Shown in pieces: positions 5,341 to 56,200 of a DNA stretch of 64,000 nucleotides. The translations under genes were made by a program, and so were the position numbers. The stretch comes from a virus, in the IMG/VR virus record IMGVR_UViG_3300024520_000050, positions 32,001 through 96,000 of that record, one strand, 5' to 3'. How positions within the stretch are numbered: the stretch's first letter is position 1; the number at the start of each line of letters is the position of its first letter. The notes beneath the pieces are model-generated. The model had not been told where the DNA came from and ran no database searches. It saw only the letters and a list, made by a program, of their open reading frames with translations.

Positions 5341-6141
5341 ATGAGTAAAAAGAGTAGACCAACCAAGACACGAATTAAAAAAGCAAGTTCATACGTTGAC
5401 AATAGAAAACGTCAAGAAAATGATGAAACGCGTGAGAAACAAATTAACGCTATTCTACAAGGTCAAGAGGCTATTGATAAATGGAATACTGAATTAGTAG
5501 GTACAACCGGTTGGAAGAAAGATGTAAACCTAGTAGAACATTTCAAAAATGTACAATTAGAAACAGGTTTAATCGTTCAAATGTACATGGAAAACCCAAT
5601 TAAGAATATCGCACGTAATACAGAAACTGGTAAAGTAGTACAGTTAGAATGGAGTTTACGTCAAATAGATGCACGTGTACGTAGTACAGATAAAAACAAA
5701 TGGGTTAATACACCATTCCCTGTCATTGATAAAGGTATGATTATGGCTATCTCACCGTCTACATTAATTTGGTATCATGAACAAAAAGAAAAACTAGCCA
5801 AGTACGATTCTGTTGCTGCAGAAGCTTTCATTGTACCTAAAGTAGGTGATATCGTATATACCAAGTTATTTAGGTTTAAAGATAACAGATATTACGTTAA
5901 CAAACAAGAAAAGTGTGAAGACTTTATTATGAATCAAGAAGAGATTCGTTTGAAGCATTTTCAGAACTTATTCTTAATTGAGAACTTTGATATTGAATCA
6001 ATTGTACGTCCTGGTAAACAAAATGATATGAGCGATAAACAAATCTTAATTGATGATAGATATGTTGATATCGATCCAGATCCAGAAGAAATTGTAGCCA
6101 ACCCAGATGTAGATAACAGTGATCACCTAATCGAAAACTAA
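5341..6141 (+). CDS. Putative enlarged GroES/Gp31-like co-chaperonin
   Basis: LETGLIVQ, KGMIMAISP, PKVGDIVY and LFLIENFDIESIV line up with the GroES strands PLxDRVIV, GEVVAVGP, VKVGDxV and YLILRESDILAIV, with long insertions. Confidence 0.45.
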   Translation: MSKKSRPTKTRIKKASSYVDNRKRQENDETREKQINAILQGQEAIDKWNTELVGTTGWKKDVNLVEHFKNVQLETGLIVQMYMENPIKNIARNTETGKVVQLEWSLRQIDARVRSTDKNKWVNTPFPVIDKGMIMAISPSTLIWYHEQKEKLAKYDSVAAEAFIVPKVGDIVYTKLFRFKDNRYYVNKQEKCEDFIMNQEEIRLKHFQNLFLIENFDIESIVRPGKQNDMSDKQILIDDRYVDIDPDPEEIVANPDVDNSDHLIEN

Positions 6142-6219
6142 TTGAACGAAGAAACAATAAAAGGAATAATAGCATGGATATTACTATTAGGATTAATAGT
6201 GATATTCATTGCTCTTTAA
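6142..6219 (+). CDS. 25-aa single-pass membrane micro-protein (TTG start)
   Basis: MNEETIKGIIAWILLLGLIVIFIAL. It starts immediately after the stop at 6141 and fills the gap. Not in the ORF track. Confidence 0.5.
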   Translation: MNEETIKGIIAWILLLGLIVIFIAL

Positions 6220-6229
6220 AACTTAACAT

Positions 6230-6601
6230 ATGAATATAGATAAAAAATACATAATAGTAATTGCATCAGCAGCATCATTGATTATTTTAATGAACATTAT
6301 AATGCTAGTTATAGCTTTCAGACCTAATGAAGCAATAGAATATAATAAACAAGGTTTCCAAATGATTCAGTCTAGATTAGATAAAATTGACAGTACCTTC
6401 ATTGCTGAGCAAACACGTATAGACATTAAACTAGACTCATTAAATATGGATCAGTCATCACTATTTGCGGACATAGATAAATATAACGACAACCTAACAA
6501 ATTCTGTAAATAAGATAAAACGTTACAAGAATGAAATTATCAAACATAATTATCGTGATAGTTCTTCTACTGCAATCATTAACGGCCTTAACGCAAGATA
6601 G
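6230..6601 (+). CDS. Inner-membrane spanin-like protein
   Basis: N-terminal transmembrane helix followed by a predicted coiled coil. Overlaps the next gene by 71 nt. Confidence 0.45.
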   Translation: MNIDKKYIIVIASAASLIILMNIIMLVIAFRPNEAIEYNKQGFQMIQSRLDKIDSTFIAEQTRIDIKLDSLNMDQSSLFADIDKYNDNLTNSVNKIKRYKNEIIKHNYRDSSSTAIINGLNAR

Positions 6602-7887: not shown

Positions 7888-8631
7888 ATGAAAAAGAAAT
7901 TTTACATGGATACTGAGTTCCATGAATATCAAAAAGATACTACATTACTAAAGGATGCAATTAATTCATCAAGTGTACATCAAACATTAATTGATACAAT
8001 TGAATTAATATCAATTGGTATTATAGATGAAGACGGAAATGAATACTATGCAATATCTAATGAATTTGATATAGATGATGCATGGAATAATGAATGGTTA
8101 AGAGATAATGTACTTAAGAATTTATTTGATAGTAAGATATCAGGTAATAAAACAAGTAGAGAATCAATGACTATTAAGAACTTTAAATCTTATATACTTT
8201 GTTGTGGTAAATCTAAATATCAAATAAGAGAAGAAATTAAATCATTTTGTGTAAATGGAGATTATACTGATGTGAAAAAGAGAATGGATGAAGGTTTAGA
8301 AACTATAGAACCTATTCCAGTTAATGATTACGAATTCTATGCCTACTATGGTGATTACGATTGGGTTGTATTCTGTTGGTTATTCGGAAGAATGATTGAC
8401 TTACCTAAAGGATTCCCAATGTATTGTAAAGATCTCAAGCAATTATTAGATGGTAAAGCAGAACTATTAAAAAAGAAAATATCTAATAGATTCTCTAAAG
8501 GTTTAGATTTTGATGAAGTATTATTTATTAAATCATTACATAATTATCCAACACAAGATAATCTCCATAATGCATTAGATGATGCTAAATGGAATAAAAA
8601 ATTACATGAATTTTTAAATGAATTGCAATGA
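7888..8631 (+). CDS. DEDDh 3'-5' exoribonuclease (Rv2179c/DUF5051-like)
   Basis: MDTEF, ELISIGII, YYGDYDWV and HNALDDAKW motifs. Confidence 0.85.
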   Translation: MKKKFYMDTEFHEYQKDTTLLKDAINSSSVHQTLIDTIELISIGIIDEDGNEYYAISNEFDIDDAWNNEWLRDNVLKNLFDSKISGNKTSRESMTIKNFKSYILCCGKSKYQIREEIKSFCVNGDYTDVKKRMDEGLETIEPIPVNDYEFYAYYGDYDWVVFCWLFGRMIDLPKGFPMYCKDLKQLLDGKAELLKKKISNRFSKGLDFDEVLFIKSLHNYPTQDNLHNALDDAKWNKKLHEFLNELQ

Positions 8632-8789
8632 TGAAATGGATCAAACAATTATTCTGTAAACACAATTATGAGAAAACATATAGTATTCATGGAGATATGA
8701 TTATTATGACAGGATATAAAAGAAGTGTATGGAGATGCACTAAATGTAAAAAACATAAATTTAGTAACTATTTAAATAAATTAAAATGA
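8628..8789 (+). CDS. 53-aa Zn-ribbon protein (DUF1660-like)
   Basis: MMKWIKQLFCKHNY...WRCTKCKKHK, with ATGA overlaps at both ends. Not in the ORF track. Confidence 0.75.
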   Translation: MMKWIKQLFCKHNYEKTYSIHGDMIIMTGYKRSVWRCTKCKKHKFSNYLNKLK

Positions 8790-9133
8790 AACAAGTAAAA
8801 GAAAATGCAGTAGTAGCAAATAACTCACATTCATATTCAGTTAATACATATACAGTTGGCCCTAATGGATTAGAAATAACTGGTGCTCAACCTATTAATT
8901 TAGTACGTGGATCTAAAGTAGATGGTGAAAATATACTTTCTAAACAAGATGGATTCTTAACTGAACAATTACTATGGATTGCACAAAATTATCTATCAGA
9001 AGTAAATGTAGGTGATATGAAGACTAGAGAAACATCAATTGCTATTACTAAGATACAAGAGGCATTAATGTGGATTAATAAGCGTCATGATGATAGAGTA
9101 GAACGTAAGGTGTTAAATACTTATAATAAATAA
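8786..9133 (+). CDS. tad1: Tad1-like immune-signal sponge (anti-Thoeris family)
   Basis: C-terminus DGFLTEQLLWIAQNYL...G...RETSIAITKIQEALMWINKRHDDRVERKVLNTYNK follows the Tad1 signature as I recall it (G-x4-LL-x-I...RE-x3-A-x-T-x3-EALMW-x-N-x-R-x2-DR-x-ER-x-VL-x-T). The N-terminal HxY is also present. Confidence 0.75.
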   Translation: MKQVKENAVVANNSHSYSVNTYTVGPNGLEITGAQPINLVRGSKVDGENILSKQDGFLTEQLLWIAQNYLSEVNVGDMKTRETSIAITKIQEALMWINKRHDDRVERKVLNTYNK

Positions 9134-9579
9134 TGATAAATAAGAAACATAAGCAAAGCATTCGTAAGTTATTAAGTGGTACTAATCTTGATCACTGGAG
9201 TTTAGCATTACAGATATTAACTGGTCAACTTAGTCGAGATAACGCTGAATCAATGATACTACAGTATATTATTAATATACATAATTATAAGATTGAGAGT
9301 AAAATGACAAGTAGTATTAGAACTTGGATTAAAGAGAAAATAATTAATGAGAAATTAATTAATTATTTCAATAGAACCTTTAAATACATAACTGGATTAC
9401 GTGAGCAATTAACAAATGGTCATACTGTACAACATAACGGAGTTCTTACATTATGTCAACTTGAAGACTGGTTTGACTCTATTATTACATCACGCAAACA
9501 AAAAAGTATTACATTGTCATGTGGAAAAGAAATAGCAGAACTATTTGATGAACTAATAAAAGAAGAAATAAATGTATAA
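9133..9579 (+). CDS. Chimeric protein carrying a 56-aa copy of an internal MCP segment
   Basis: Residues 88-143 align to MCP 314-372 with 29 identities (hand alignment, one 3-aa gap). Confidence 0.85.
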   Translation: MINKKHKQSIRKLLSGTNLDHWSLALQILTGQLSRDNAESMILQYIINIHNYKIESKMTSSIRTWIKEKIINEKLINYFNRTFKYITGLREQLTNGHTVQHNGVLTLCQLEDWFDSIITSRKQKSITLSCGKEIAELFDELIKEEINV

Positions 9580-9620: not shown

Positions 9621-10538
9621 ATGAAGAAAGGAGAGACTGGATCGAACGTAAAGGATCTACAATATAAATTAAAGAAAGTATTAAATCGTAATATATCAAT
9701 TGATGGTGATTATGGTAATACAACAAAACAAGCAGTTTGGGATTTTCAAGGATTATATAATCTATATGTAGATGGTGTAGCAGGAGAGAAAACAATGGCT
9801 GTATTAAATAGAGCATATAATGCCTTACATAAAGAAAATAGTAACTTACTTAATCTTGGAAAGAAACGATTTGTTATCTTTGTTGATGCTGGTCATGGCG
9901 GTATTAATGATAATGGCAACTATACAACATCCGGAAAACGTGCATACCATAATGGACGTGAACTACATGAACGTGGACACTACTATGAAGGTTATGAGAA
10001 TAGAATAGTTGCAGAAGCATTTATAGAAGCTTGCATGAATAAAGGAATCATGTGTATTCGCACATATCATCCATCCAAAGATACATCTCTTTCGTATCGT
10101 ACTGATTTAATTAGATCATATCTACGTAGAGGATATTATGGATATATGCATTCATTTCATTCTAATGCTATTGCATCATCTAACTCACAAAGTAAAATGG
10201 AAGCAACCAAAGGTTATATGGTATTTAATACTAGAGGAGATACATTTTCAGATGATATAGCTACTATACATTATAATAATGTTAAGGATGAAATAGGAGA
10301 AGGTAACTGGAATTTTAGAGTACAAAAACAAGATGATGGAGATATCGATTTTGAAGTCAATTTCCAAATGTTAAGGGAAACAGATTTAAATGAATTCGAA
10401 AACTTTGGTGCAATACTAGATGAATGGGGATTTCATACATCTGGTGAAGACTGTCAATTTATATTAGACAGTAGAGAACAACGAATAAACGCATGTCTTA
10501 AGACAGCACAATGGGTAAAACAAAAATTAAATAACTAA
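9621..10538 (+). CDS. Endolysin: PG-binding domain + N-acetylmuramoyl-L-alanine amidase (Amidase_3)
   Basis: VKDLQYKL...IDGDYGNTTKQAVWDFQ...VDGVAG (PG_binding_1). Zn and catalytic residues in DAGHGG, YEN, SFHSNA and LDEWGF. Confidence 0.9.
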   Translation: MKKGETGSNVKDLQYKLKKVLNRNISIDGDYGNTTKQAVWDFQGLYNLYVDGVAGEKTMAVLNRAYNALHKENSNLLNLGKKRFVIFVDAGHGGINDNGNYTTSGKRAYHNGRELHERGHYYEGYENRIVAEAFIEACMNKGIMCIRTYHPSKDTSLSYRTDLIRSYLRRGYYGYMHSFHSNAIASSNSQSKMEATKGYMVFNTRGDTFSDDIATIHYNNVKDEIGEGNWNFRVQKQDDGDIDFEVNFQMLRETDLNEFENFGAILDEWGFHTSGEDCQFILDSREQRINACLKTAQWVKQKLNN

Positions 10539-11818: not shown

Positions 11819-14284
11819 ATGTATAAAACCAAACAAGACTTAAAGAATATACAATTAGAATATGATAAAGGTGTTTTACTTCCAACAGCAAAAGAGAAGT
11901 TGATAATTAATCCTAAGATAGCATATGAGGTAACTAATATTGATGTTAAACAATCAATACCTGAACATGCTATATTAAAAAGGATTGAACCTGTATATGG
12001 TATAATCAGTGACTTCTCTAAAGAATATACTCCGGTAGATAATCTATTGTGGGACTATTTATATTTTACTGATTCTAAATTATTCGCACCTGCAGGAGAA
12101 GCATTCATGAAAAGTCTTAATGCTACTAAAGGTAAGACTGGGTTAAAACCAACATATACTAAACACTTACCCGGAACAACAGCATACAACAGATTCTGGG
12201 AAGAAGAGTTCCTTCGTATAACAAAAGGATATGAACCAGAAATAGATGGTAAACCTTGTGGTATTAAGATACCTGGTGAGTTTTATTTTTATCTGAATTA
12301 TGGTTGGATGCAAAAAGTAGAGTTCAATGATAAAGGAGAAGTAATAAGTGATAAGTCAGGTGTTCCTGATTTTCTATCGATGGATTATTACTTCTATAAA
12401 GAATTAGAAGCTAGAGAAAATCCTGCTAAATATAATCTACCTTTTGAATATAAACAATCTATGTCAATTACTAAGTCTCGTCGTAAAGGATTTAGTTATA
12501 AAGCAGGGTCAGGAGCAGTATGGTGTACAGCATTTAGAGACAAAGCAAAAGTCCTTATTGCGTCAGCTCAAGGAAAAGATGCTACCTTGTGCTTTCAGAA
12601 AGCAATGGATATTATTGATCATATAACATTATATACTCCTTTTGGTAGAAAGAATCCAGGACATCCAAGTTCTAATGGAGGTTGGAAGCATATGACAATG
12701 AGTCAAACTAAGGATCATGGCGAGTTTGTTTTCGGGTTAATTAATACTCGTACAAGAATGAAGAAAGGAAGACGTAGTGAAATAGTTACAGCGTCTTTAT
12801 TTAATAAACCAGATGCTGCTTCTGGTGAAGGTCTTACAAGACTATATATAGAGGAAGCAGGAAAGATATCTAATTTAGCTGATGCATGGGTATTCTCATT
12901 AGAATCAATGCGTGTAGGTTCTGTATATCGTTCAGGGATTGCAGTAATATTTGGAACTGGTGGATCTATGGTATCTGCTTCAGGGAAGAAAGGTTCATCG
13001 CAAGATTTTGCTAATATGAATGATAGACCTGAATCAGTAGGATTAGCTGCATTTAAAAACATATATGAATATAAACCTACACAACGTAAATGTGGTTTCT
13101 TTGTATCTGATATGTGGGCTAACTTTGGTTCTAAGATAACCATAGATGGTAAAGTGCATTATGGTTTAGATAAAAATGGTAATGCATGTTTTTGGGTTGC
13201 TGAATTAGCATTAAATAAAGAACGTGCAGGTAAACGACCACCATTAGGTAAGAAAAGAATATTTGATAAATTCCTTACACAACGTTGTAAAACCCCAGCA
13301 GAAGCATTTCTTATTACAACTGGTAGTCGATTTCAAACTGAAGATCTTGTTGAACGTAAGACTAAAATAGCTATATCACGAGGAGGATTTGAATCATTAC
13401 GGATGCCAGGTGAATTAGTAGACATAGATGGTCGAGTAGAGTTTATACCTAAACCTCATGAAGAACCATTATTAAATACATATAATGAAGCAGAAAGAGA
13501 AGGTTGCTTCTTAAGATATGAACCACCATTAAAATTAGGTGGATCAATACCAGATGATGCATATATTATTTCAGTGGATCCAATTGGTATTAATACAGAT
13601 ACAGGTGGATCATTGACGGCTATTATTGTATTTAAGACAAGAAAGTATGAATCATGGTTAGGTCCTGAAAAGATTGTAGGTATTTACTTTGGTCGTAAGA
13701 AACTTAATCCACAAGGATATGTACATAGATTATTACTTAAATTATCTAAATATTATAATGCTAAGATAACTATAGAGAATGATAGAGATGGTGGTATACC
13801 TCAATACTTTATTCGTAAAGGAGAAGCTGCTAGATTAATGGGACCTCCTATTACTACAATGGAGAAGATTATGCCAGGTAGTAAAACATCACGTAGACCG
13901 TATGGTCATTCAATGTCAACAGTTCGACATAAACAAATTGGAGAAGATTTATTATATGAATGGTTAGATTTACGTGGATCTAATATAACTTATTATGATG
14001 AAGAAGATGGTGAAAAGACTATTGAATCAGGATTACGTAATATAGATAGATTAGAAGATCAACTACTAATTGAACAATTAATTAAGTACGAACGTGGTGG
14101 TAACTACGATTTAGTTATGGCAATGATGGGAATTGTAGTTCAATTAAAAGAATGGTACGATCCAGAAGATACAGATCCATATGAAGAAAATAGTATATCA
14201 GATCAACTTAATAAATGGAAAGTAAAACGATTTGGCTCATATGAAGACAAATTAAAATATAACAAAAGAAAATTTAAACGATAA
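11819..14284 (+). CDS. terL: Terminase large subunit
   Basis: Walker A-like TKSRRKGFSY, Walker B LYIEEAG, RNase H-like IISVDPIG and YDLVMA. Confidence 0.93.
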   Translation: MYKTKQDLKNIQLEYDKGVLLPTAKEKLIINPKIAYEVTNIDVKQSIPEHAILKRIEPVYGIISDFSKEYTPVDNLLWDYLYFTDSKLFAPAGEAFMKSLNATKGKTGLKPTYTKHLPGTTAYNRFWEEEFLRITKGYEPEIDGKPCGIKIPGEFYFYLNYGWMQKVEFNDKGEVISDKSGVPDFLSMDYYFYKELEARENPAKYNLPFEYKQSMSITKSRRKGFSYKAGSGAVWCTAFRDKAKVLIASAQGKDATLCFQKAMDIIDHITLYTPFGRKNPGHPSSNGGWKHMTMSQTKDHGEFVFGLINTRTRMKKGRRSEIVTASLFNKPDAASGEGLTRLYIEEAGKISNLADAWVFSLESMRVGSVYRSGIAVIFGTGGSMVSASGKKGSSQDFANMNDRPESVGLAAFKNIYEYKPTQRKCGFFVSDMWANFGSKITIDGKVHYGLDKNGNACFWVAELALNKERAGKRPPLGKKRIFDKFLTQRCKTPAEAFLITTGSRFQTEDLVERKTKIAISRGGFESLRMPGELVDIDGRVEFIPKPHEEPLLNTYNEAEREGCFLRYEPPLKLGGSIPDDAYIISVDPIGINTDTGGSLTAIIVFKTRKYESWLGPEKIVGIYFGRKKLNPQGYVHRLLLKLSKYYNAKITIENDRDGGIPQYFIRKGEAARLMGPPITTMEKIMPGSKTSRRPYGHSMSTVRHKQIGEDLLYEWLDLRGSNITYYDEEDGEKTIESGLRNIDRLEDQLLIEQLIKYERGGNYDLVMAMMGIVVQLKEWYDPEDTDPYEENSISDQLNKWKVKRFGSYEDKLKYNKRKFKR

Positions 14285-14295
14285 AATTATTATTA

Positions 14296-17028
14296 ATGAA
14301 ATACTTTTTAAATCAACGTATCTCTGCCAAGAAGAAGAATAAAGCATGGAGAGAGAAAATGGTTGATCATTACGTTGAACTATCTTATACTTGGTATGAT
14401 GATTGGGATAGAATTCAAGAGAATTATGCTCTTAAAAACAATCAACTAGATCGTAAAGAAATAGCAAGTATATGCAAAGGTCTTGGTTCGGAAGAACATG
14501 CTGATGTATTTATTAATGCATATAATAAGACACACAATGTTATTGATGCTTTGCAAGGAGAAGAATGGAATCGTCCGTTTTCATATGGTATTATTAATAA
14601 TTCCAAGCAAGCAATAGATAAGATTGATAGAGACAAAAGACGTGAAATAGATGAGTCTGCAGATGCAATCTTCCAATTAGAAATGCAACGTCAACAAGAA
14701 CTTTATGGAATAGAAGAAAAGAAATTAGGAGAAGGAGGAGACGAACAGCAAACTCAAAAAGCTATTCAAGAATTACAAGAACGATATGATAAATTATATG
14801 GAAATATTGTTGATCCTAAGACAATATTTGACAAGTATAAAAATATAACTACCGCAGAAGAAATAGCCATACATAGAATTATGACTATGCAAGCAGCCAA
14901 ACTTAACCTTAAGTTTGTAAAGAATCAAACCTTTGAAGATGCTATAATTGCAGGTAGAGAAGCTGTAGAAATTTACTCACTACACGAAGATGACTTACCT
15001 AGAGTAAAACAAATTAACCCATTAAATTTATTTTTTCAGAAATCTCCTGATGTAATGTGGATTCAAGATTCAGATTATGCAGGGTATCGTGAATTGATGA
15101 CTATAGATAAGGTACTAGAAGACTATGGTGAATTCCTCACCAAAGCTGAATTCAAAAAACTAACTGAAACAGGTGCTTATGGTGGTGCAGTAAAAGGACT
15201 TCATCATCCATTCACAGTTAAACCTGGACACAAACAACCTTCTGAAGATACAGAAGTACGTGGGTTTCGTGATATTCCTCGTGGTAGAAATGGATTAACT
15301 AGTGAAGATTATTTTGCATTAAGTGAAGAATATGGTGGACCGGACAATGGTTACATGAGTAGTGATTATGTTAGTCGTATAGGATTAAGTGCTACTAATA
15401 ATAGAATAAGTAATCTACGTGAATTTATTGATGTGTATACTATTTATTGGAAGTCACAACGTAAGATAGGACACTACAAATTTATCAATGATTACGGCGA
15501 ACAAGACGAAACATATGTCTCAGAGTCGTTCTCAATTCCTAAGCGCGCCACGAAAGAAACAATACCAGATGGTTATACTAAATCTAAAGTTATACATTAT
15601 TGGACAGATTCTAATGATGATACGCAAAAGTTCTCATTAGAATGGATCTGGGTGCCAGAAGTATGGAAGGGGGTTAGAATTGGTAAAGACATATATTGTC
15701 AGACAGCGCCAGTACAACATGCCTATCAATCATTATTAAATCCCTATGAAGTTAAATTACCCATTTATGGTTATGTATACAATAATAGAAATGCATACAG
15801 TGTTTCTATCATGGACAGAATGAAACCGTGGCAGAAGATTTATTATGTCATTATGGCTAGACTACTTAAATTAATTAGTCAAGATAGAGGTGTTCTTACT
15901 TTTATTAACATACATATGTTAGATAAGAATTTAGGATTTGAAGAAGCATTGCGAGTTGCAGACGATGGTGGTATTGTACCATATAATCCATTAAGTAATT
16001 CTAAAGGAGCTGGTGGTTTTGGTAATATGAATACTATGAAAGTAGCTGAACGCATTGATGCTACTAACTCTCAAGCTATTCAACATTATATCACTATATT
16101 AGAATTTATTGAGAATAGTATTAAACTAGCAGCAGGTATGTCAGATCAACGTATGGCTCAAACAAATGCTCGTATGACTGCTACAGATAACTATAGAGAT
16201 ACAATGCATTCAATTAATATTACAGAGACCTTACATGCCGCACATGATTTATTGTGGGAAGACGTGTTACAGGGAATGATGGAAATGACCCTAAAAGTTC
16301 TTAGTGAAAGTACGGGGAAGATACGAGGCTTTCTAAACGATGAAGAAAAAGTATTAGTGGATCTAGATATGTTAAGTTTGGAAGACAACTTCCGATTACG
16401 TGTAGCAGATAATTCTAAAGCGTTTAAAATACTTGAACAATCTAAACAACTTGCTCATGCACTTGTACAGAATGATAAAGCTAGTCTTGATACATTAATT
16501 GAATTAATGGAGACAGAAAACTTAAGTGAATTCAAACACTTAGTTAGAGAAGCTGAGGAGAAACATCAAGAACGTCAAGAGCAACAACAACAATCTCAAC
16601 AAGATCATGAGAAAGAGATGGCTGAAATGCAACGTAAACAGAATGAAGATAACCAAATTGCTAAATTAGATGAGATTTACTTAAAAGGTAAATTAGACTT
16701 TGAAAAAGAAGAAATGAAAGCTGATAAACAAGCTGCTTCATTTGATCCTGAAAAAGATTATAATAGAGATGGTATTGCTGATTACTTGCAACAAGATCAA
16801 TTGCAGCAGAAAATAGATAATGAATCTCGTAAAATAGATCTTGATGAGTTTAAAGCAGGAATGGAAGAACGTAAAAATGAACAAGATCAACAAATTAAAT
16901 TAGATGAATCTTTAAGACAAACTGAAAAGGACAACGCAGATCGAGAAGTTACATCTTCTGCAAATGCACAGAAAAGTAAACTAGAGGCCATGAAAATAAA
17001 GGCAATGAAAGATAAAAAGTCTACATAA
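14296..17028 (+). CDS. Portal protein
   Basis: 910 aa directly after TerL. crAss-like portal motifs WIPEVWKG.RIG and SIMDRMKPWQ, and a coiled-coil C-terminus. Confidence 0.88.
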   Translation: MKYFLNQRISAKKKNKAWREKMVDHYVELSYTWYDDWDRIQENYALKNNQLDRKEIASICKGLGSEEHADVFINAYNKTHNVIDALQGEEWNRPFSYGIINNSKQAIDKIDRDKRREIDESADAIFQLEMQRQQELYGIEEKKLGEGGDEQQTQKAIQELQERYDKLYGNIVDPKTIFDKYKNITTAEEIAIHRIMTMQAAKLNLKFVKNQTFEDAIIAGREAVEIYSLHEDDLPRVKQINPLNLFFQKSPDVMWIQDSDYAGYRELMTIDKVLEDYGEFLTKAEFKKLTETGAYGGAVKGLHHPFTVKPGHKQPSEDTEVRGFRDIPRGRNGLTSEDYFALSEEYGGPDNGYMSSDYVSRIGLSATNNRISNLREFIDVYTIYWKSQRKIGHYKFINDYGEQDETYVSESFSIPKRATKETIPDGYTKSKVIHYWTDSNDDTQKFSLEWIWVPEVWKGVRIGKDIYCQTAPVQHAYQSLLNPYEVKLPIYGYVYNNRNAYSVSIMDRMKPWQKIYYVIMARLLKLISQDRGVLTFINIHMLDKNLGFEEALRVADDGGIVPYNPLSNSKGAGGFGNMNTMKVAERIDATNSQAIQHYITILEFIENSIKLAAGMSDQRMAQTNARMTATDNYRDTMHSINITETLHAAHDLLWEDVLQGMMEMTLKVLSESTGKIRGFLNDEEKVLVDLDMLSLEDNFRLRVADNSKAFKILEQSKQLAHALVQNDKASLDTLIELMETENLSEFKHLVREAEEKHQERQEQQQQSQQDHEKEMAEMQRKQNEDNQIAKLDEIYLKGKLDFEKEEMKADKQAASFDPEKDYNRDGIADYLQQDQLQQKIDNESRKIDLDEFKAGMEERKNEQDQQIKLDESLRQTEKDNADREVTSSANAQKSKLEAMKIKAMKDKKST

Positions 17029-17062
17029 TAAATAACTAACTAACTAACTAACTAAATAAATT

Positions 17063-18625
17063 ATGCATAAAACAACAAGTACAATATTAACTGGAGTTAA
17101 TCTTCTGGTTGATACTGTTAAACAAACACTAGGAACAAAAGGTCGTACTATTTTATTTAATGATGAGAACAATAGAACTCACATTACTAAAGATGGTGTG
17201 ACTGTTGCTCGTCATATCTTTTCAGAAGATGATTATGAGAATATGATAATTACTGTATTACGTGAAGCATCACTTAAGACTATGAAGTCAAGTGGAGACG
17301 GCACTACAACAACAATGATACTTGCTCAATATATTATTAATGAAGGACTTAAATTACTTGATGAAGGATTAAGTTTTTATGAAATGAGTCGTCAAGTTGA
17401 TGAAGCTGTCAAAGATGTAGTAGATTATATTAATAATACTTCAATTAAAATAGAAGATAATCAAGAATTACTTCGTGAAATTGCAGCTATTTCTTCTAAC
17501 GATGAAAAGCTTGGAGATTACATTTATTCAATCATAGAAGAGATTGGATTATATGGAGATATTGAAGTTAAAGAATCTCAATACTCTGAAACTCGTAAGA
17601 TTCAAACTAAAGGAATGAAGTTACATAAAGGTTGGATGGAGAACTTTATGATGAATGATCCACGTGAATTAAAATTTAAAGCAAATGATTGCCATATTCT
17701 TATTATTGATGATATCATTCAAGCTATTACTGATATTGATCAGTATATTAGACACCTTAATGGAAAACCGTTGGTAGTATTCTGTGATGAGGTTACAGAT
17801 ATTACATTATCCCAAATTCAAAAATGGATGAGTACTACAGGTTATCCTGCATGTTTCGTCCACAATGATGGACACGGAGAACGTAAACAAATATTAATGA
17901 ATGATCTTGCTGCATTAACATCAGCATATGTTATTTCTGCACAAGATCCATTTGATCCTGATAATTTAGGATTCACTGGACAGATACAAGTTGGTGAATG
18001 GCATACATCTATATTAGATGGTGAAAGTGATACGGATATGATTGAAGCTATTACATATGATATTCAAGAAATATTAAATGATGATGCAAATGATGATGAA
18101 ACATTAATTACTAATGTAGATCGTAAGTTTCATAAAAAACGCTTAGCTAATTTAACAGGTGGATTAGCAGTAATTCATGTGGGTGGACGTACACAAATGG
18201 AGATGAAAGAATTGAAGGATAGATTTGATGATGCTGTATTGGCTGTAGGAAGTGCTATTAAACAAGGAGTTAATGTTGGGGGTGGTTCTACTTATATTAA
18301 CTGTCAGAAGATACTAAATAAAAGATATAAGGAATCTAAAGGTAGAGGATATAAATTAATTATAGATTCACTTGATTCCCCATTCAAACAATTATTAACT
18401 AATGCTGATCTATCTAGTCAATTTGGATTTTATAAGAATCAACTTACTAAAGGTAAAGCATTAGATCTTCGTGATAATAAATTATATAACCTTGCAACAA
18501 CAAAATATACAGTGTATGATCCATCATCTGTATTGATTGATTCGTTAATTAATGCAACTGCTGTAGCAAAATCATTACTATCTATAAAAGATGTACTTTT
18601 TGATGGAAAGAAACTAGGCGGTTAG
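17063..18625 (+). CDS. groEL: Phage-encoded group I chaperonin (GroEL-like)
   Basis: TLGTKGR, ITKDGVTVA, GDGTTT, RLANLTGGLAVIHVGG, EMKELKDRFDDAV and GGG. No GGM tail. Confidence 0.95.
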   Translation: MHKTTSTILTGVNLLVDTVKQTLGTKGRTILFNDENNRTHITKDGVTVARHIFSEDDYENMIITVLREASLKTMKSSGDGTTTTMILAQYIINEGLKLLDEGLSFYEMSRQVDEAVKDVVDYINNTSIKIEDNQELLREIAAISSNDEKLGDYIYSIIEEIGLYGDIEVKESQYSETRKIQTKGMKLHKGWMENFMMNDPRELKFKANDCHILIIDDIIQAITDIDQYIRHLNGKPLVVFCDEVTDITLSQIQKWMSTTGYPACFVHNDGHGERKQILMNDLAALTSAYVISAQDPFDPDNLGFTGQIQVGEWHTSILDGESDTDMIEAITYDIQEILNDDANDDETLITNVDRKFHKKRLANLTGGLAVIHVGGRTQMEMKELKDRFDDAVLAVGSAIKQGVNVGGGSTYINCQKILNKRYKESKGRGYKLIIDSLDSPFKQLLTNADLSSQFGFYKNQLTKGKALDLRDNKLYNLATTKYTVYDPSSVLIDSLINATAVAKSLLSIKDVLFDGKKLGG

Positions 18626-19959: not shown

Positions 19960-21561
19960 ATGTCAGTAAAAAACTTTGAGAATGCTAAAGCGATCCATAA
20001 TGGACAACTTCGTCCAACTGTATTAACAGATGGCCTTTTAGCAACTGGTGAGATTACTGGTCTACACTTAAGCCAAGCTTTCGGTAGTACTGAAAATCTT
20101 GCGACAATTAATATGGGTTATGCACAAATCTTTAGTGCAACTAACCGATATCACAGCAAGCCTATCCTTGGAATGACTGAGGCTAAAGGTAAAGTAAAAA
20201 CAATTAATCGTAGAGGTTTCCGTTGGGAACTATCTGGAGGTAACACACAAAAAGCTCGTATTACACGTGTTGTTTGTACTGATGCTCGTCCAGGTCTACA
20301 TTTACAAACTTTTGATATCGTAGTTGATAAGCCATGGTTTAACGTATCTGATATTATTATTCCTCAGAATAATAAACGTCAATGTCGTGTAAGTACTTTT
20401 GGTAACGGTCAATCACGTAGACATCATCAAGTAGGACCTAACGCTTATCGTTATACTATTCAATACATTACTAATAACGGTAATGAATTCTTACCCGCCA
20501 AGTATATCCAAGAAGGACAAGAATGGTGTAAAGTTTCTAGTGCTGTAGGTGATGAAGATAACATCGATGCTGGTGGATTCCAATTCTACTCAATCTTCGA
20601 AAGTGAAGGTCAAATCCAACAACATGCAATTAAGGTAGAAGTATCTGATAAAGCTGCTCGTCGTGCGAAACAAGCACAAAAAGATGGTAGTGATACAGAT
20701 GAATTCGGTAAATATCTTAAGATGTTATGGGTTAAGTATGAAGACAAAGTAACAGGTGAACCAATGCACCGTTTCATGGCTTTATTAGATGCAGAAGCAT
20801 ATAATGAGTTATACCAAAACGTTGAATGGACATTAATCTTCGGTAAGACATCTAATAACATGGTGACACCAGAAGGACATCAAATCTTAACTGCTTCAGG
20901 ATTACGTCAACAATTAGAATCAGGTTATACACTTGAGCATAATGGTACATTATCTTTAGAAGAATTAGAAGACTGGTTTGATTCAATTATGAAAGACAAA
21001 CTTTCAGAAGGTGAGCAAAAAATCGTTTTATCTGCCGGTCGTGAATTCCGTAAGATGTTCGATAAGATGATCAAAGTAGATGCTAGAGCATTTACAACTA
21101 TTGATACATTATTCCTTCGTAAAGGAGACAACTTCCGTCATATGGATTTTGGTTCTTACTTTGCATCTTATAAAGGTTTCACAGTTGATATTTCTGTAAT
21201 GGAAAATCCAGCTTACGATAATCAATACTACTGCCCACAAATGCACCCAGTGCGTACAGAGGTTTGTATCGATTCATGGAGAGCTGATATCTTGGACTTC
21301 GGATCAAGTAAACAACAAGGAACTGGAGGAGAAACAGATAATATCTGTATGATTCAAGAGTCATACTGTGACTACAATATCACTTACAACGGTAAATGGT
21401 ATGGAGCACATGATGGTAAATCAGGTCAACCAATCACAGATGGTGGTTTAGGACAAGGTGGTGGAGTCTCAGGATATTCTATCCTAAGAGAGAAATCAGC
21501 TGGACTTATGGTTGCTGATGTAACTCGTTGTGGATCAATCTTCTTATCTTTTGACGATTAA
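19960..21561 (+). CDS. Major capsid protein (HK97 fold, crAss-like)
   Basis: 533 aa, position in the head module, Lys/Arg- and Gly-balanced codon usage (CGT, GGT) typical of a highly expressed gene, and motifs QIQQHAIK and GLRQQL..G..L.HNG. Confidence 0.88.
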   Translation: MSVKNFENAKAIHNGQLRPTVLTDGLLATGEITGLHLSQAFGSTENLATINMGYAQIFSATNRYHSKPILGMTEAKGKVKTINRRGFRWELSGGNTQKARITRVVCTDARPGLHLQTFDIVVDKPWFNVSDIIIPQNNKRQCRVSTFGNGQSRRHHQVGPNAYRYTIQYITNNGNEFLPAKYIQEGQEWCKVSSAVGDEDNIDAGGFQFYSIFESEGQIQQHAIKVEVSDKAARRAKQAQKDGSDTDEFGKYLKMLWVKYEDKVTGEPMHRFMALLDAEAYNELYQNVEWTLIFGKTSNNMVTPEGHQILTASGLRQQLESGYTLEHNGTLSLEELEDWFDSIMKDKLSEGEQKIVLSAGREFRKMFDKMIKVDARAFTTIDTLFLRKGDNFRHMDFGSYFASYKGFTVDISVMENPAYDNQYYCPQMHPVRTEVCIDSWRADILDFGSSKQQGTGGETDNICMIQESYCDYNITYNGKWYGAHDGKSGQPITDGGLGQGGGVSGYSILREKSAGLMVADVTRCGSIFLSFDD

Positions 21562-50209: not shown

Positions 50210-53200
50210 ATGAAGTGTAAGATAATATATAAGAGAGATCCAAATACTCTTAAAATTACAGATGAAATACAAGCAGTGAAGGCTCCCAATGGTAAGAGGA
50301 GCCTTCTATATGATGCTATACGTAATCAAATAAATAATGATACTAAAGCATTAACTCAATACTTTAAGGTTTATACTGATGAGTTTAAAGAGGATTTTGG
50401 TGATTGGGAGATGACTACAATAGATAGAGATGAATCAATAAATGATATTAAAAATTCTTATAAATTAGTAATTGAAAATAATGATAAAATTGAAGATTTA
50501 AATATTGATATTGAAGATGCTATTCAATTTGATAAGAATAATATTAATAGTGTCACACAAAAAAGTAAAGATATTATTGAACAGGTTAATAAAATTAGAT
50601 GGCAGGTTAGAAGAGTTAGTGATGGACTTTTGCGTGAAGAGTGGGAACAATGGTCCCAATCTGCATACGACGAAGTTAAATCTGAACTGAGTACTGATTT
50701 TTTAAGCACCATTGACGAAGGTCCCATGAAAGGGAGTATTAGTCCGGGAAGTGCGAGCAATCTTTTAATATTTAGATATTTATATCCTAAAAATAAAGGC
50801 ATCACTACAGATCAAGAACTTTTTGTAGGTGCGTTTATACAGCAAATATTAGATTGGAATGTAGATGGAAATTCGTCCTTATTGAATAAACTTAATAAAG
50901 AGAATGAAGCACTAACTGATAGTTTGAATGATAACCTAAAAAGCATTATCATTAATCCAGAAGAATTAAATAATATTTCATCACTTATTACAAGTTCTGA
51001 TGAAAGTAATCAATCTCTTGGATTAGAGATTCTTAATAACTATGTAAATGACAAACTAGATCAAAACGGTGAACCTAAATATGATGAAGTAAAGGATTTA
51101 TTTATTGATGAAGAAGTTGATGAAGGAATTACTGTGAAGGAAGGTGTTGATGATGTATTTAAAGATAATAAAGAGTTATCTAAAATAGGTACACAAGAAG
51201 AATATAGTCAATATTTGGATAGTATATTTCCTGATAGTAAGGTTAAAGATATTGTTTATCATGGAACTGATAAGGAATTTGATAAATTTGAATTACAGAT
51301 TATACCAAAAACAGCGTGGACTAAAGAACTACCCGGATTTCATTTTACAAACAATAAAGCTGTCGCCAAAAGTTATTTTAACACAAAAGAAAGAGTTAGT
51401 AATTTAATACCATTGTATTTACATTTAAATAAATTTGCTGCCGATGGTAAACTTTTAACAGAACAAGAGTTTGATGATATTAAAGCAGATAATGATTTAC
51501 ATACTGAAATAATGCAACAAGTTCATTATTATGGTGGGATGGGAATTGATAATGTTAAAACTTATAATGAGTATAAAAGACTCTTTACAGAATTCTCTAA
51601 AGATGAAGGTTTTGATGGAATGACGAGCATAAGTGATATATTTGATCTTCAACAAGATGAGTATGAAGCTGAAAGAGAAGCTGAACATTTTGGTCGTCCT
51701 TTTACAAGTACCTTTAAAAATCCTCTTGATAAATATAAGAAGTCTGAACCTAAAGTATTAAAGTCAGTTATATTAAATATAGAAAATCCTTTACTTGTAA
51801 ATGATATATCAGGTCAAAGATATGTTCAAAATGTGGAAAATATAAAAAGTAAAATTGAATCTACTAATGATGGTATTATTGCAAAAGATGTACTCGACGC
51901 ATTAGAGGATAAAGAGGGTACTTATCATGGTGATACAATAGTTGCATTTGATAATGAGCAAATTCACATATTAGGTTCTAAAAAAGACATCCAAGGATTC
52001 AAAGATTATAAATCTAATATTGATCAAGATATTAGTCCAAAAATTATTTCTCCTTCTGATAAGATCATTTATGGTCATCCAGGTATAGGTAAAACTACAG
52101 CATTGAAAGCTAATAAAGATCAATTTATTGATTGGGATGTTGAGTTTAATAAGAAGAGAGATAAATGGATTGAGAATAAAAGTAAATCTAAAAAAGGTAC
52201 TCCTAGTTATAAAAAAGCAAGAACTAAATATCTTGTTAATTATAAAGACAATCCTGATTATATGACTTTTGTAACTAAAGAATGGGGTAGAGCAAAAGCA
52301 AAAGCTAAGAAAGAAGGTAAGCAATTATTTGCTTCACCTCATATATTACTTGATTTATTTCCTAATGACTTTGATAAAGTTATTAATATGAATGATGAGC
52401 TATTTATAAAAAGAGATATAGATAGAGGTGGAATTGAGCAAAGTGCACGATTATGGAAAGAAGGTATTAATAAAACATTATCAAAAATATCTCCATCTAA
52501 GATTGTAACTACAGATAAATATTTATCTGAGATATTAGCATCCGATGAGGTATCTAAAGTAGAAGATACTGATCAATATTCACTAACTTCATCATCTATA
52601 AAACACCAAGGTCAACCTACAACAGTATCTAAAACTGATACAGTTAAAATTGATACTGATCCATTTAAATCTCAATTAAATGATGATGGTTATACGCAAG
52701 AACAAATTAAGATATTAGATACTTATAACGCAGCTACATCATCACTTACTGGTAATACAATTAAAGTTAAAGTGTCTGAATTACCTGCTAACTTACGTAA
52801 AATATTTGAATTAAAAGGTGAAGAATATGCTGAAGTATATGAAACTATTGATCACGAAACAGGTAAGAAAGGATATATAAATTATCGTGTATCTAATTTA
52901 CAAGATTTAAAGAAAGTAAAAGGACAAACTCAAAAGGTAGCTACAGCACAAGAACAAAACCCTAAATCTGTAATATCTAGACAACGTGGTACAGAAATGC
53001 ATAGTATACAAGAGAAGTTCTTAAGTCATTTTGCATTATCTGATAATGATACTTTTAATATAGATACTCTTAGAAAATCTGATGCTAATATATGGGCTCC
53101 TGAAGCACTAGCTGAATTTAAAAAAACAGCTGAATATAGAAAGATATGGGAAGAATCAATAGATATATTCTTAACTAAGTCGAAATCAAATAGAGAAGGA

Positions 53201-56200
53201 AAAACCTGGTCTACACATAATGCATCATTACAAGTTGATAAATTAGCTATGTCTATGTTACATTTGTATCATCAAATACAAATGACTCAACAAGCTATTA
53301 ATCTTGAGACAGGTAAGAATAATAAACCTATATTTATATTAGAGAAACCATTCCTAGATTTAGGTAATGATGTTGCAGGAACAATGGATATTTTTGTAAT
53401 ATTCAGTGATGGTAGTGCATCTATTTATGATCATAAATTTACTGATTTACAAGCAGAAAGAAAATACTTCAAGAATCCATCTACAGAGAAGAAAGCTGAA
53501 ATAGATCGTATTAGAAAAGCACAAGGGCTTCCAGTTAATCCAGAAACTAATTGGTACTTTCAATTACCTAATAATCTTAAATTATTTAAGAAAGAAGAAT
53601 CATGGAATGCTCAGATAGGACGTTATGCTCAAATGGCAAAACAATTGTACGGAGTTACACATATTAGACAAGCACGGATTTTACCTGTAGCTACAACTTA
53701 TACAAGAGTGGATAGTAAACGTGAGGATAAGAATGGTGATACTATTATGCATGTTGGTCCTGGATCACAAGTAGAAGTATTATTAACTGGTATTAATGAT
53801 GATTTAGGAGTAAGTCAAATAGCATTGAATATAGAACGTACAGGCGATGTAAATCTTGATAGATTTATTGATATGCTTATTAAGAATAAAGAAACTCTTA
53901 AAAGAGAGATGAAAAGTAAGAATGCATATGGAGATCCTAAATATGTTAATCGTATTAAAGGATTAGATGAATCTATTCAGGCATTATTGAAGAGTAGAGA
54001 TATTACACATATATCTGAAGCAATTGATGCATTGGCTAAACAAATTGAAAATGATTTAGATCCAAATGCAGAAGATCCTATTACATTTGAACAAATCATA
54101 CTTCATCTAGGTGACATTAATATGTTTAATACATTTATTGAATTGTCAGGTAATGAGATTGATAAACTTGAAGATAAAGCTAATAAGGAAGCTGAGGAAG
54201 CTAAAGAAAGAGGAGAAGAACCTAAAGAAAATCCTTATGTTACATTTAAAAATAGATTATCTGCTGCTAATTTTGCTTTGACTAATCAAGCTAGAAGGAT
54301 GCATGATAAGATGACACTTATGGTAGAAGAGATAAATGAAAAAGGTGGTTATATGAATGAAGGATTATTTAAATCATTTACCAAGCAGAAGGATATGAGT
54401 GGCGTGGGTGTACAATTTACTCATTTACGTGAGTCTAATCATCCCATTATATCTTTATTTAGTCAATTACTTGATAACATTGAAACTAATGTTATGTTAG
54501 AACGTAGTAAATTAGAACAAAAGTTAAAGAAAATAAATAAAGAATTAACTGAATGGGGTAGTTCAAAGGGATTAACTGGACCTGCTATATATAATGATAT
54601 AATTGATGATGAGTTTGGTAATTTAATTCGTAAGTTTACTAATTTTAAAAAAGATTTATTTGAAGATTATTCTGATCCTAAAAATCATAAGAAGAACATT
54701 GTATGGTTCAAAGAAAACTTTGAGCGTTCTGCTTCGGCTGAGAAGATATTCCAGAACAAATACAAACAAATACAAGAATATTGGAAAAGAGAAACCAAGG
54801 GTGATAAAAACGAATATAAGAAAGAAATACAAAACTGGTTGAATCAAAATGATATCACTCATGCACAAGGTGATAATAAAGCCTGGTATAATCCATTTGT
54901 GCAGCACTGGTTGACTCCAAAGAAACCAGACGACTATTATACTGATGAGTATAAGAACTTGCTTAAAGCGGAGAATAAACCGCTATTAGATTTCTATAAT
55001 ATTTACATTGAGCAAATGAATATGTTAGCTCAAAAAGCTGATTTTAGGATATATGAAAATGCTATTCCTAATATTAGAAAGGATATGATCGACACAATGG
55101 TTCAAGATGGAATGTTTTTAGGTGGCAAACAACAAATTGAAAATATAAGAAATTGGTGGTCTAAGACTGATACTGATGATGGGATGCAAACTATACTTAC
55201 TGAAGATGGATTAGAACGTAGTGTTCCTATTTTCTATCAAAATAATGTAGGTAAAGATAACAAGTCATTTGACTTAGCTAAATCATTAATGTTGTTCTCT
55301 GACTTTGTACATAAGTATGATGGTATTAAAAATATTGAACATGCATCATTAGCGATGAGAGAATTAGTTAGTAAAACAGCAGGTATTAAATCAACTATAA
55401 CAGGGGCTATATTGCGTAGTGAATCTGGAGAGATGTTAGTTAAAGATGGTGCTAGTGCAAGTAATGATAAAACACTTAGTGCATTTGACACGTGGATTGA
55501 TTACTATATTTATGGTGAGAGGAAAAAAGGAAATGTTAAATTGAATAAAGCTGTTGATGCTGTAACTGCAATATCTAGTAGAAAAGGAGTTGCACTTAAT
55601 CTTATTAGTGCAATGGGAGGACATGTAAATGCTGAAGCACAACTTCAAATGATAGCTAAAAAGACTACTTATTTTACAACTGACACTCTTAGTAAAGCTA
55701 GACGTCAAGTTAAATTAGGTATTCCTGCTTTACGTAAATCAAAAGAAGCTAACGAAATGTTACATAGTAAAGTTGTTTTTGCTAATTTATTCTTTGAACC
55801 ATCTCAAGAAGATATGAGTCATGAGAAAGCAAATAGCATGAGCTTATCTAAATTACGTAATAATTCATTAATGGGTAAAAAAGATTATGCTTACATGCTA
55901 CAACGTTATTCTGATGATATTATAGATAATACAACCATGACAGCTATGATGATGGATTATGGGATTGATCCTATTACAGGTAAGACATATCCTTTATCTA
56001 GATTGAAAAAGGTGTATGGAGAAAATGAAAGTGAATTTAAACCTGGAGTAAGATATAAAGATATTGAATTTAAATCATTATGGGATATGACTATGATGAA
56101 AGATGGAGATGTAGATCTTGGTACTGGTAAAACGGTAAGTATTAAACTTGCTGAAGATGGTACTCCGCAAATGATAAATCAATTTACAGAAAAAGCTATT

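Follow-up and report, generated by a model that had tools for sequence, protein, structure and literature searches.

The phage record studied here is 178.4 kb long, of the crAss-like type, and carries a crassvirus muzzle gene; the window, that is, the whole stretch of DNA analyzed, is a 64-kb part of it. The features of the window on which the analysis rests are the following:

7888..8789 (+), a 3′–5′ exonuclease-like gene and a 53-aa zinc-ribbon-like gene, the first two genes of a variable cassette (profile and annotation matches)
8786..9133 (+), an Acb2/Tad1-hairpin protein of the signal-sponge family, directly upstream of ORF148 and overlapping its start (PF24729, 27.8 bits against a cut-off of 27)
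9133..9579 (+), ORF148 (P0001), 148 aa, a carrier domain with a tail derived from the major capsid protein (MCP) (start overlapping the upstream stop; protein on six contigs; orthologues)
9133..9390 (+), N-terminal carrier of ORF148, residues 1–86, a five-helix α-solenoid-like domain that opens with an LxxSxDxxNWxLA-type hairpin (AlphaFold, family, ω 0.23)
9391..9561 (+), MCP-derived piece of ORF148, residues 87–143, corresponding to MCP 313–372, with an HNG motif and two putative A-domain helices (BLASTP, HHalign, ω 0.25)
9621..10538 (+), amidase (endolysin), a conserved landmark downstream of the cassette (PF01471, PF01520; synteny)
11819..18625 (+), terminase large subunit, portal, and phage chaperonin, a head-gene block on the same strand as ORF148 (PHROG 6681, PHROG 6547, PF00118)
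17063..18625 (+), the phage-encoded chaperonin, between portal and MCP (PF00118)
19960..21561 (+), MCP, 533 aa, crassvirus type (Pfam PF23898, E 2.8e-38; PHROG 11589; crAss001 gp32, PDB 7qof)
20896..21075 (+), source segment in the MCP, residues 313–372, after the spine helix 275–293 (BLASTP, gp32 alignment, MCP model)

The start codon of ORF148 lies in the stop codon of the Acb2/Tad1-hairpin gene (TAATG overlap). Late co-expression of ORF148 with the MCP and the sponge is likely because the gene is on the same strand as the amidase, terminase, portal, chaperonin, and MCP genes, and gene order and the TAATG overlap point the same way; a promoter scan returned promoter-like sites at chance level. 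The PF24729 hairpin domain is present in the neighbor (8786–9133) and absent from ORF148, which is an accessory, patchily distributed gene next to an anti-defense gene. We infer, rather than identify, a Bacteroidota host because identity to the closest annotated phage MCPs, which come from uncultured gut crAss phages and from Flavobacterium phages, is only 20 to 23%. Elsewhere in the window, a 2323-aa protein (50210–57181, +) has an ART-PolyVal ADP-ribosyltransferase domain at residues 348–471 (PF18760). In more distant phages, longer Acb2/Tad1-hairpin relatives occur a few genes upstream of the amidase (L018 583–1302, L021 2315–2959). In L005, a 341-aa gene (5437–6462), whose product may resemble a glutamine synthetase, is inserted immediately ahead of the terminase region.

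Residues 87–143 of ORF148 align with MCP 313–372 with 30 of 60 positions identical (BLASTP, E 5e-18), and profile–profile comparison by HHalign gives a probability of 99.15% (E 3.9e-19); both were the checks named in the original prediction, which had described the gene as a free-standing, selectively conserved copy of an internal MCP segment. Its counts were reproduced at codon level: between ORF148 88–117 and MCP 314–343, 20/30 residues and 60/90 nt are identical, and 7 of the 20 identical residues are encoded by codons that differ from those of the MCP. Its overall figure of 29/56 departs from the BLASTP value through gap placement alone. The argument drawn from the synonymous codons is weak by itself, as the changes could stem from the MCP lineage alone. 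“Free-standing” applies to the gene but not to the piece, which is fused to a helical domain of 86 residues and forms the C-terminal 40% of the protein. In the 178.4-kb genome, MCP-like sequence outside the MCP gene is confined to the ORF148 piece; a resemblance between carrier residues 37–67 and MCP 161–191 (BLASTP, E 0.045) was taken as chance.

Homology to the MCP does not make ORF148 an MCP. The protein gives no Pfam hit and thus falls outside the PF23898 family profile, and PHROG 11589 matches at E 0.005, covering only positions 245–347 of 495. The P-domain, the spine helix, and the E-loop with I-domain of the HK97 fold are absent from the alignment, and the confident part of the model of this 148-aa protein consists of the helices in residues 1–86. 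Judged by profiles and domains, ORF148 is neither an MCP nor a sponge, nor a member of any profiled family.

A reading of ORF148 as nonfunctional debris, as an assembly artifact, or as a silent cassette for recombination into the MCP gene is very improbable, and by these sequence data largely refuted, even though some pairwise dN/dS values come near 1. An identical protein is present on six contigs, so that the assembly chimera considered in the original prediction can be set aside. The DNA of the piece is only 58% identical to that of the MCP, with saturated synonymous sites, too low for exchange; the same two observations rule out both the silent-cassette and an antisense-RNA reading. When neutral drift to the same DNA identity was simulated (2000 runs), 15.6 ± 2.4 identical residues were retained, with a maximum of 24, compared with the 30 observed, and just 1.2% of the runs stayed free of stops. 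Intact orthologues down to 42% identity and ω values well below 1, given below, also count against decay.

AlphaFold models the carrier as five helices with a pLDDT of about 82. The tail is predicted to have helices at 107–118 and 132–147, with a pLDDT of about 50 and no strand. In the AlphaFold model of the MCP (mean pLDDT 40), which has low confidence outside the I-domain and served for the order of secondary structure only, the spine helix 275–293 is followed by a helix (333–347), a strand (354–359), and a helix (361–373). This helix–strand–helix order, together with the gp32 alignment, suggests that the piece corresponds to two A-domain helices of the HK97 fold, which agrees with the earlier placement of the segment after the spine helix, at the start of the A-domain. 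A complex prediction for ORF148 with the MCP scored 0.00 against a mark of 0.32; this is no answer and weighs neither way.

The carrier belongs to an unnamed family with 13 paralogues in this genome, and with two tandem members in L017 and at least seven in L033. A fold search gave generic helical-repeat matches only (best Z 7.2), PADLOC, Pfam, and PHROGs gave no profile match, the Atlas gave no usable feature hit, and a DNA pattern scan with the carrier motif retrieved, for the most part, terminases and unrelated proteins. The tails of the family are hypervariable, mostly with no known source, and 11 of the 13 paralogues in this genome carry no piece of any large protein of the phage.

Intact orthologues of ORF148 (P0003–P0007, P0015) are 128 to 157 aa long and 42 to 65% identical to it. 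Four lie immediately ahead of the amidase gene, and one is in the same cassette with different neighbors. Pattern scans of viral and metagenome contigs yielded no orthologues, and the gene was not found in cultured phages. Selection was measured with codon models among orthologues only, leaving the MCP lineage out. The estimate of ω was 0.23 for residues 1–86 (2ΔlnL 72 versus ω 1) and 0.25 for the MCP-derived piece (2ΔlnL 37 versus ω 1), compared with 0.055 for the corresponding segment inside MCPs; the piece thus evolves four to five times more freely than the same segment in MCPs, under a constraint equal to that of its carrier. Pairwise dN/dS values on the piece range from 0.34 to 1.12 and are noisier than the codon models. 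Among the copies, conservation is higher at columns that do not vary across MCPs than at the others (mean 0.75 versus 0.54, p 5e-4), and HNG, D139, and K143 are invariant across the six orthologues with DNA. By these codon models, the piece has been under purifying selection since it was copied. The original prediction of an old copy under purifying selection, which was to be doubted if orthologues had frameshifts or dN/dS near 1, is therefore borne out: the orthologues are intact, and the orthologue-only ω is significantly below 1.

A tree of the segment groups the copies on one side of a branch with support of 83/90, which is not firm, but a position as sister to the MCP of the phage itself is rejected (AU p 0.003). 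This rules out a recent duplication of the phage's own MCP. Hence, the duplication that had been proposed is indeed old, but it does not pair with today's MCP of the same phage, and the carrier family bears other MCP pieces as well. Tree and rates together indicate that the capture is old and that the piece has since changed faster than its MCP source.

To find such pieces elsewhere, 5057 small ORFs were screened against MCP profiles; reversed controls reached 4.5 bits and shuffled controls 8.9 bits. All non-MCP matches of at least 10 bits were in crAss-like relatives. MCP-fragment ORFs in other crAss-like genomes, named in the original prediction as a check, thus do occur, and they derive from five MCP regions: 53–83, 110–133, 183–215, 306/313–348/373, and 502–526. 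The same carrier is joined to MCP 53–83 in L033:3112 (BLASTP, E 8e-7), to MCP 502–526 in L034:243 (E 2e-6; HHalign 96%), and to the A-domain piece, MCP 306–352, in P0014, also in L033. By sequence homology, then, one carrier family bears three different MCP pieces. Five small genes that have no carrier hold weaker MCP pieces, at most three genes from the amidase:

L034:86, MCP piece 110–133, 11.4 bits
L022:3887, MCP piece 183–215, 10.3 bits
L018:2153, MCP piece 313–348, 13.2 bits
L014:667, MCP piece 313–348, 10.4 bits
L067:5260, MCP piece 330–357, 7.3 bits

When the genes ahead of the amidase were scanned against the MCP at 18 loci, just seven genes, all with MCP pieces, scored. In L034, a sponge orthologue heads the cassette and is followed by the piece 110–133, the carrier with 502–526, the carrier with the A-domain piece, and the amidase. 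A sponge stands beside MCP-piece genes at two loci; none was called in the long P0004 contig, so the linkage is not obligatory. Relatives with 87%-identical MCPs (L006, L007, L051) have unrelated genes in the slot, and the MCP-piece genes are therefore dispensable.

Several further observations concern these small genes. L033 (322–3688) has its carrier-family genes around a DNA-polymerase-like gene, two of them with different MCP pieces and the others with sourceless tails. A second family, free of the carrier (L018 2153–2419, L014 667–897, P0017–P0025), combines an N-terminal MCP-like motif with a common C-terminal helical part. In this second family (88 aa), variable sites are concentrated in the MCP-like motif (9/33 versus 2/49, p 0.006). 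The tail of a carrier paralogue in L017 (4820–5191) weakly resembles MCP 63–93 (E 0.27; 1/100 shuffles). Related genes of 63 to 68 aa lie directly upstream of two ORF148 orthologues (L001 14–205, L002 318–524); their likeness to MCP 355–375, seen by eye, is not significant (20/100 and 77/100 shuffles). The additional stretches of three longer relatives (G001–G003) held no further MCP pieces. Outside the window, the tail of another carrier paralogue (G000:129929–129576, minus strand; L231:3577–3930) resembles residues 204–235 of the terminase large subunit, around the Walker A motif. This match (p 3e-5, about 0.04 after 1300 tests; 8/300 shuffles) is suggestive only; a search for relatives of the paralogue found none, and the gene is one of three in tandem, the others being 130300 and 129560.

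A carrier family with hypervariable, mostly sourceless tails invites an explanation in which the MCP gene is simply a frequent in-frame donor to a fast-shuffling family whose 3′ ends vary, with the piece doing a job unrelated to capsids. This would fit with a piece that is constrained as its carrier is, and four to five times less than the MCP. Intron homing in the donor gene may have aided this process: the MCP genes of relatives have breaks near residues 53, 69, 217, and 396, three of them caused by insertions that contain homing-endonuclease-like ORFs, and two of the piece ends adjoin such sites. The coincidence of piece ends with interruption sites is not significant, however (p 0.09), and does not apply to the ORF148 piece, so an origin of the pieces as homing debris is unsupported. 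Moreover, the residues that are kept are the MCP-invariant ones, and when about 100 large genes were tested for partial matches in small genes, the strong ones came from the MCP only. We consider this explanation unlikely.

In the relatives concerned, the MCP gene is in four pieces in L050 (= L024; 6732–10577), with breaks near residues 53, 217, and 396, and in two pieces in L045 (4872–7499), with a break near residue 69. ORFs lie within three of these insertions, a LAGLIDADG-like motif being visible in two, and an Rfam search of the interruptions found no group I intron at the gathering score. In two other records (L017 16686–18291, and L025), the MCP reading frame shifts at residue 214, possibly through sequencing error because several further genes there are broken.

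Many bacterial immune systems detect the MCP since a phage can hardly alter it. Phages are known to answer with escape mutations in the MCP and with sponges or enzymes that remove the immune signal. The reading that we favor, at somewhat less than an even chance, is that ORF148 is a late-expressed capsid mimic that would occupy a host MCP sensor without firing it. The stable helical carrier would hold the A-domain helices of the MCP in diverged form and would be made late, together with the MCP and the adjoining signal sponge. ORF148 would then bind the host protein that detects the MCP, and the bound sensor would stay unfired, either for lack of the remainder of the HK97 fold or because the carrier blocks the activating step. 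As relatives show different MCP pieces on one carrier, the slot may act as a changing kit of capsid look-alikes.

Several lines of evidence are consistent with such a decoy. Selection keeps MCP-like residues in the copies, and the patchy presence of the gene, the repeated capture of MCP pieces, and the more rapid divergence of the piece are in keeping with an arms race. The decoy reading also gains from the repeated captures in combination with the sponge neighbor. Avs7, Avs8, and Avs10 bind the penton- and hexon-forming face of the MCP A-domain (bioRxiv 10.64898/2026.01.04.697583), and Lit and CapRel read short MCP motifs (bioRxiv 10.64898/2026.01.04.697583; PMC9712102). Phages from which acb2 has been deleted escape CBASS via MCP mutations (PMC10419184); this links sponges and MCP look-alikes through a common threat.

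Other observations count against a decoy. Avs sensors wrap the entire MCP fold (bioRxiv 10.64898/2026.01.04.697583), and Sau-Thoeris appears to need an MCP hexamer; a piece of 57 residues, modeled with no β-sheet at a pLDDT of about 50, would be a poor copy for either. A faithful piece could trigger motif-reading sensors rather than block them. The pieces are drawn from all over the MCP and not from one known epitope, and the carrier does not seem specific to capsids because most of its paralogues in this genome lack a piece of any large protein of the phage. The P0004 contig, where no sponge was called, and the pairwise dN/dS values up to 1.12 were also counted here.

The two helices, if they indeed belong to the capsomer-forming A-domain, could instead dock into an MCP–MCP contact, whereby ORF148 would poison or redirect the heads of a competitor or satellite, tune assembly of the phage's own head, or tag the carrier for packaging. 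The position of the gene at the front of the head-gene block suits such a role, and some copies have a higher score for a more distant MCP group than for that of their own phage (P0015: 146 versus 113), which suits a competitor as target. A regulator of the phage's own MCP would be expected to evolve in step with it; the copies instead form a separate branch with the sister position rejected. In addition, close relatives build heads without the gene, and five unrelated MCP regions are hard to reconcile with a single assembly role. Action on assembly is rather unlikely in our judgment.

The chaperonin gene between portal and MCP raises the question of whether the piece is a bait or adaptor for a folding or translation factor that handles the MCP, be it the phage chaperonin (17063–18625), host GroEL, or EF-Tu. 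The isolated piece is probably poorly folded, according to AlphaFold, and the MCP of T4 binds EF-Tu, as stated in bioRxiv 10.64898/2026.01.04.697583. We regard this role as improbable: the gene is patchy, whereas chaperonin homologues are present in about 20 of the head-block loci examined, and chaperonins are not known to need sequence-specific copies.

Returning to the decoy, a wider form of the same idea, which we put forward tentatively and with less confidence, is that this clade runs a modular decoy kit. The expanded carrier family would display pieces of the phage's own core proteins, from several MCP regions and possibly also from the Walker A region of the terminase, to jam sensors before they signal, with the sponge as a second layer. 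If so, the pieces would map the epitopes that are read by Bacteroidota immune sensors. Should the decoy be real, capsid look-alikes would constitute a further phage strategy, one that acts on the sensor itself; each captured piece would predict an MCP surface read by a host sensor, and the genes could be used as baits for Bacteroidota sensors. Should the target be a rival phage's head, ORF148 would represent a new kind of phage-against-phage weapon. The architecture, with one carrier, several MCP pieces, and selection on the pieces, stands whichever function proves right.

Among known proteins, the crassvirus MCP (PF23898; crAss001 gp32, PDB 7qof; PMC10172136) is the source of the tail, ORF148 87–143 being homologous to MCP 313–372, about gp32 290–349. 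Compared with the MCP, ORF148 holds 11% of the protein, lacks the E-loop, I-domain, spine helix, and P-domain, has its piece fused to an unrelated helical domain, and evolves that piece with the greater freedom described above. Avs7, Avs8, Avs10, CapRel, Lit/Gol, and Sau-Thoeris are host-side sensors, and the MCP (for Avs, its A-domain face) is the pattern that a decoy would copy. Within the part of the literature covered, no report of phages making an MCP fragment against MCP sensors was found. The Acb2/Tad1 sponges (PF24729), one of which is the direct neighbor of ORF148, counter signaling systems linked to capsid sensing by binding the signal molecule, whereas ORF148, which has no sponge domain, would act one step earlier, on the sensor.

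P4 Sid, PICI CpmAB, and PLE TcaP are capsid-binding assembly modifiers of satellites that are not known to derive from an MCP, and T4 gp24 is a full-length MCP paralogue whose whole HK97 fold is built into the virion. These are small or paralogous proteins that act on heads; ORF148 differs from all of them in being a partial, dispensable, MCP-derived fusion. Phytophthora PsXLP1 and vaccinia K3L are inactive or partial copies of recognized proteins that absorb a host defense protein, a function that has been demonstrated. The parallel is one of analogy, with no homology and with eukaryotic systems on the other side, and for ORF148 the decoy role is a hypothesis. The decoy mechanism is the leading hypothesis, at under even odds. 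On sequence grounds, ORF148 is a real, old, and selected gene, and it belongs to a larger pattern, undescribed in the literature covered, in which one type of helical carrier bears several capsid pieces beside an anti-defense gene.
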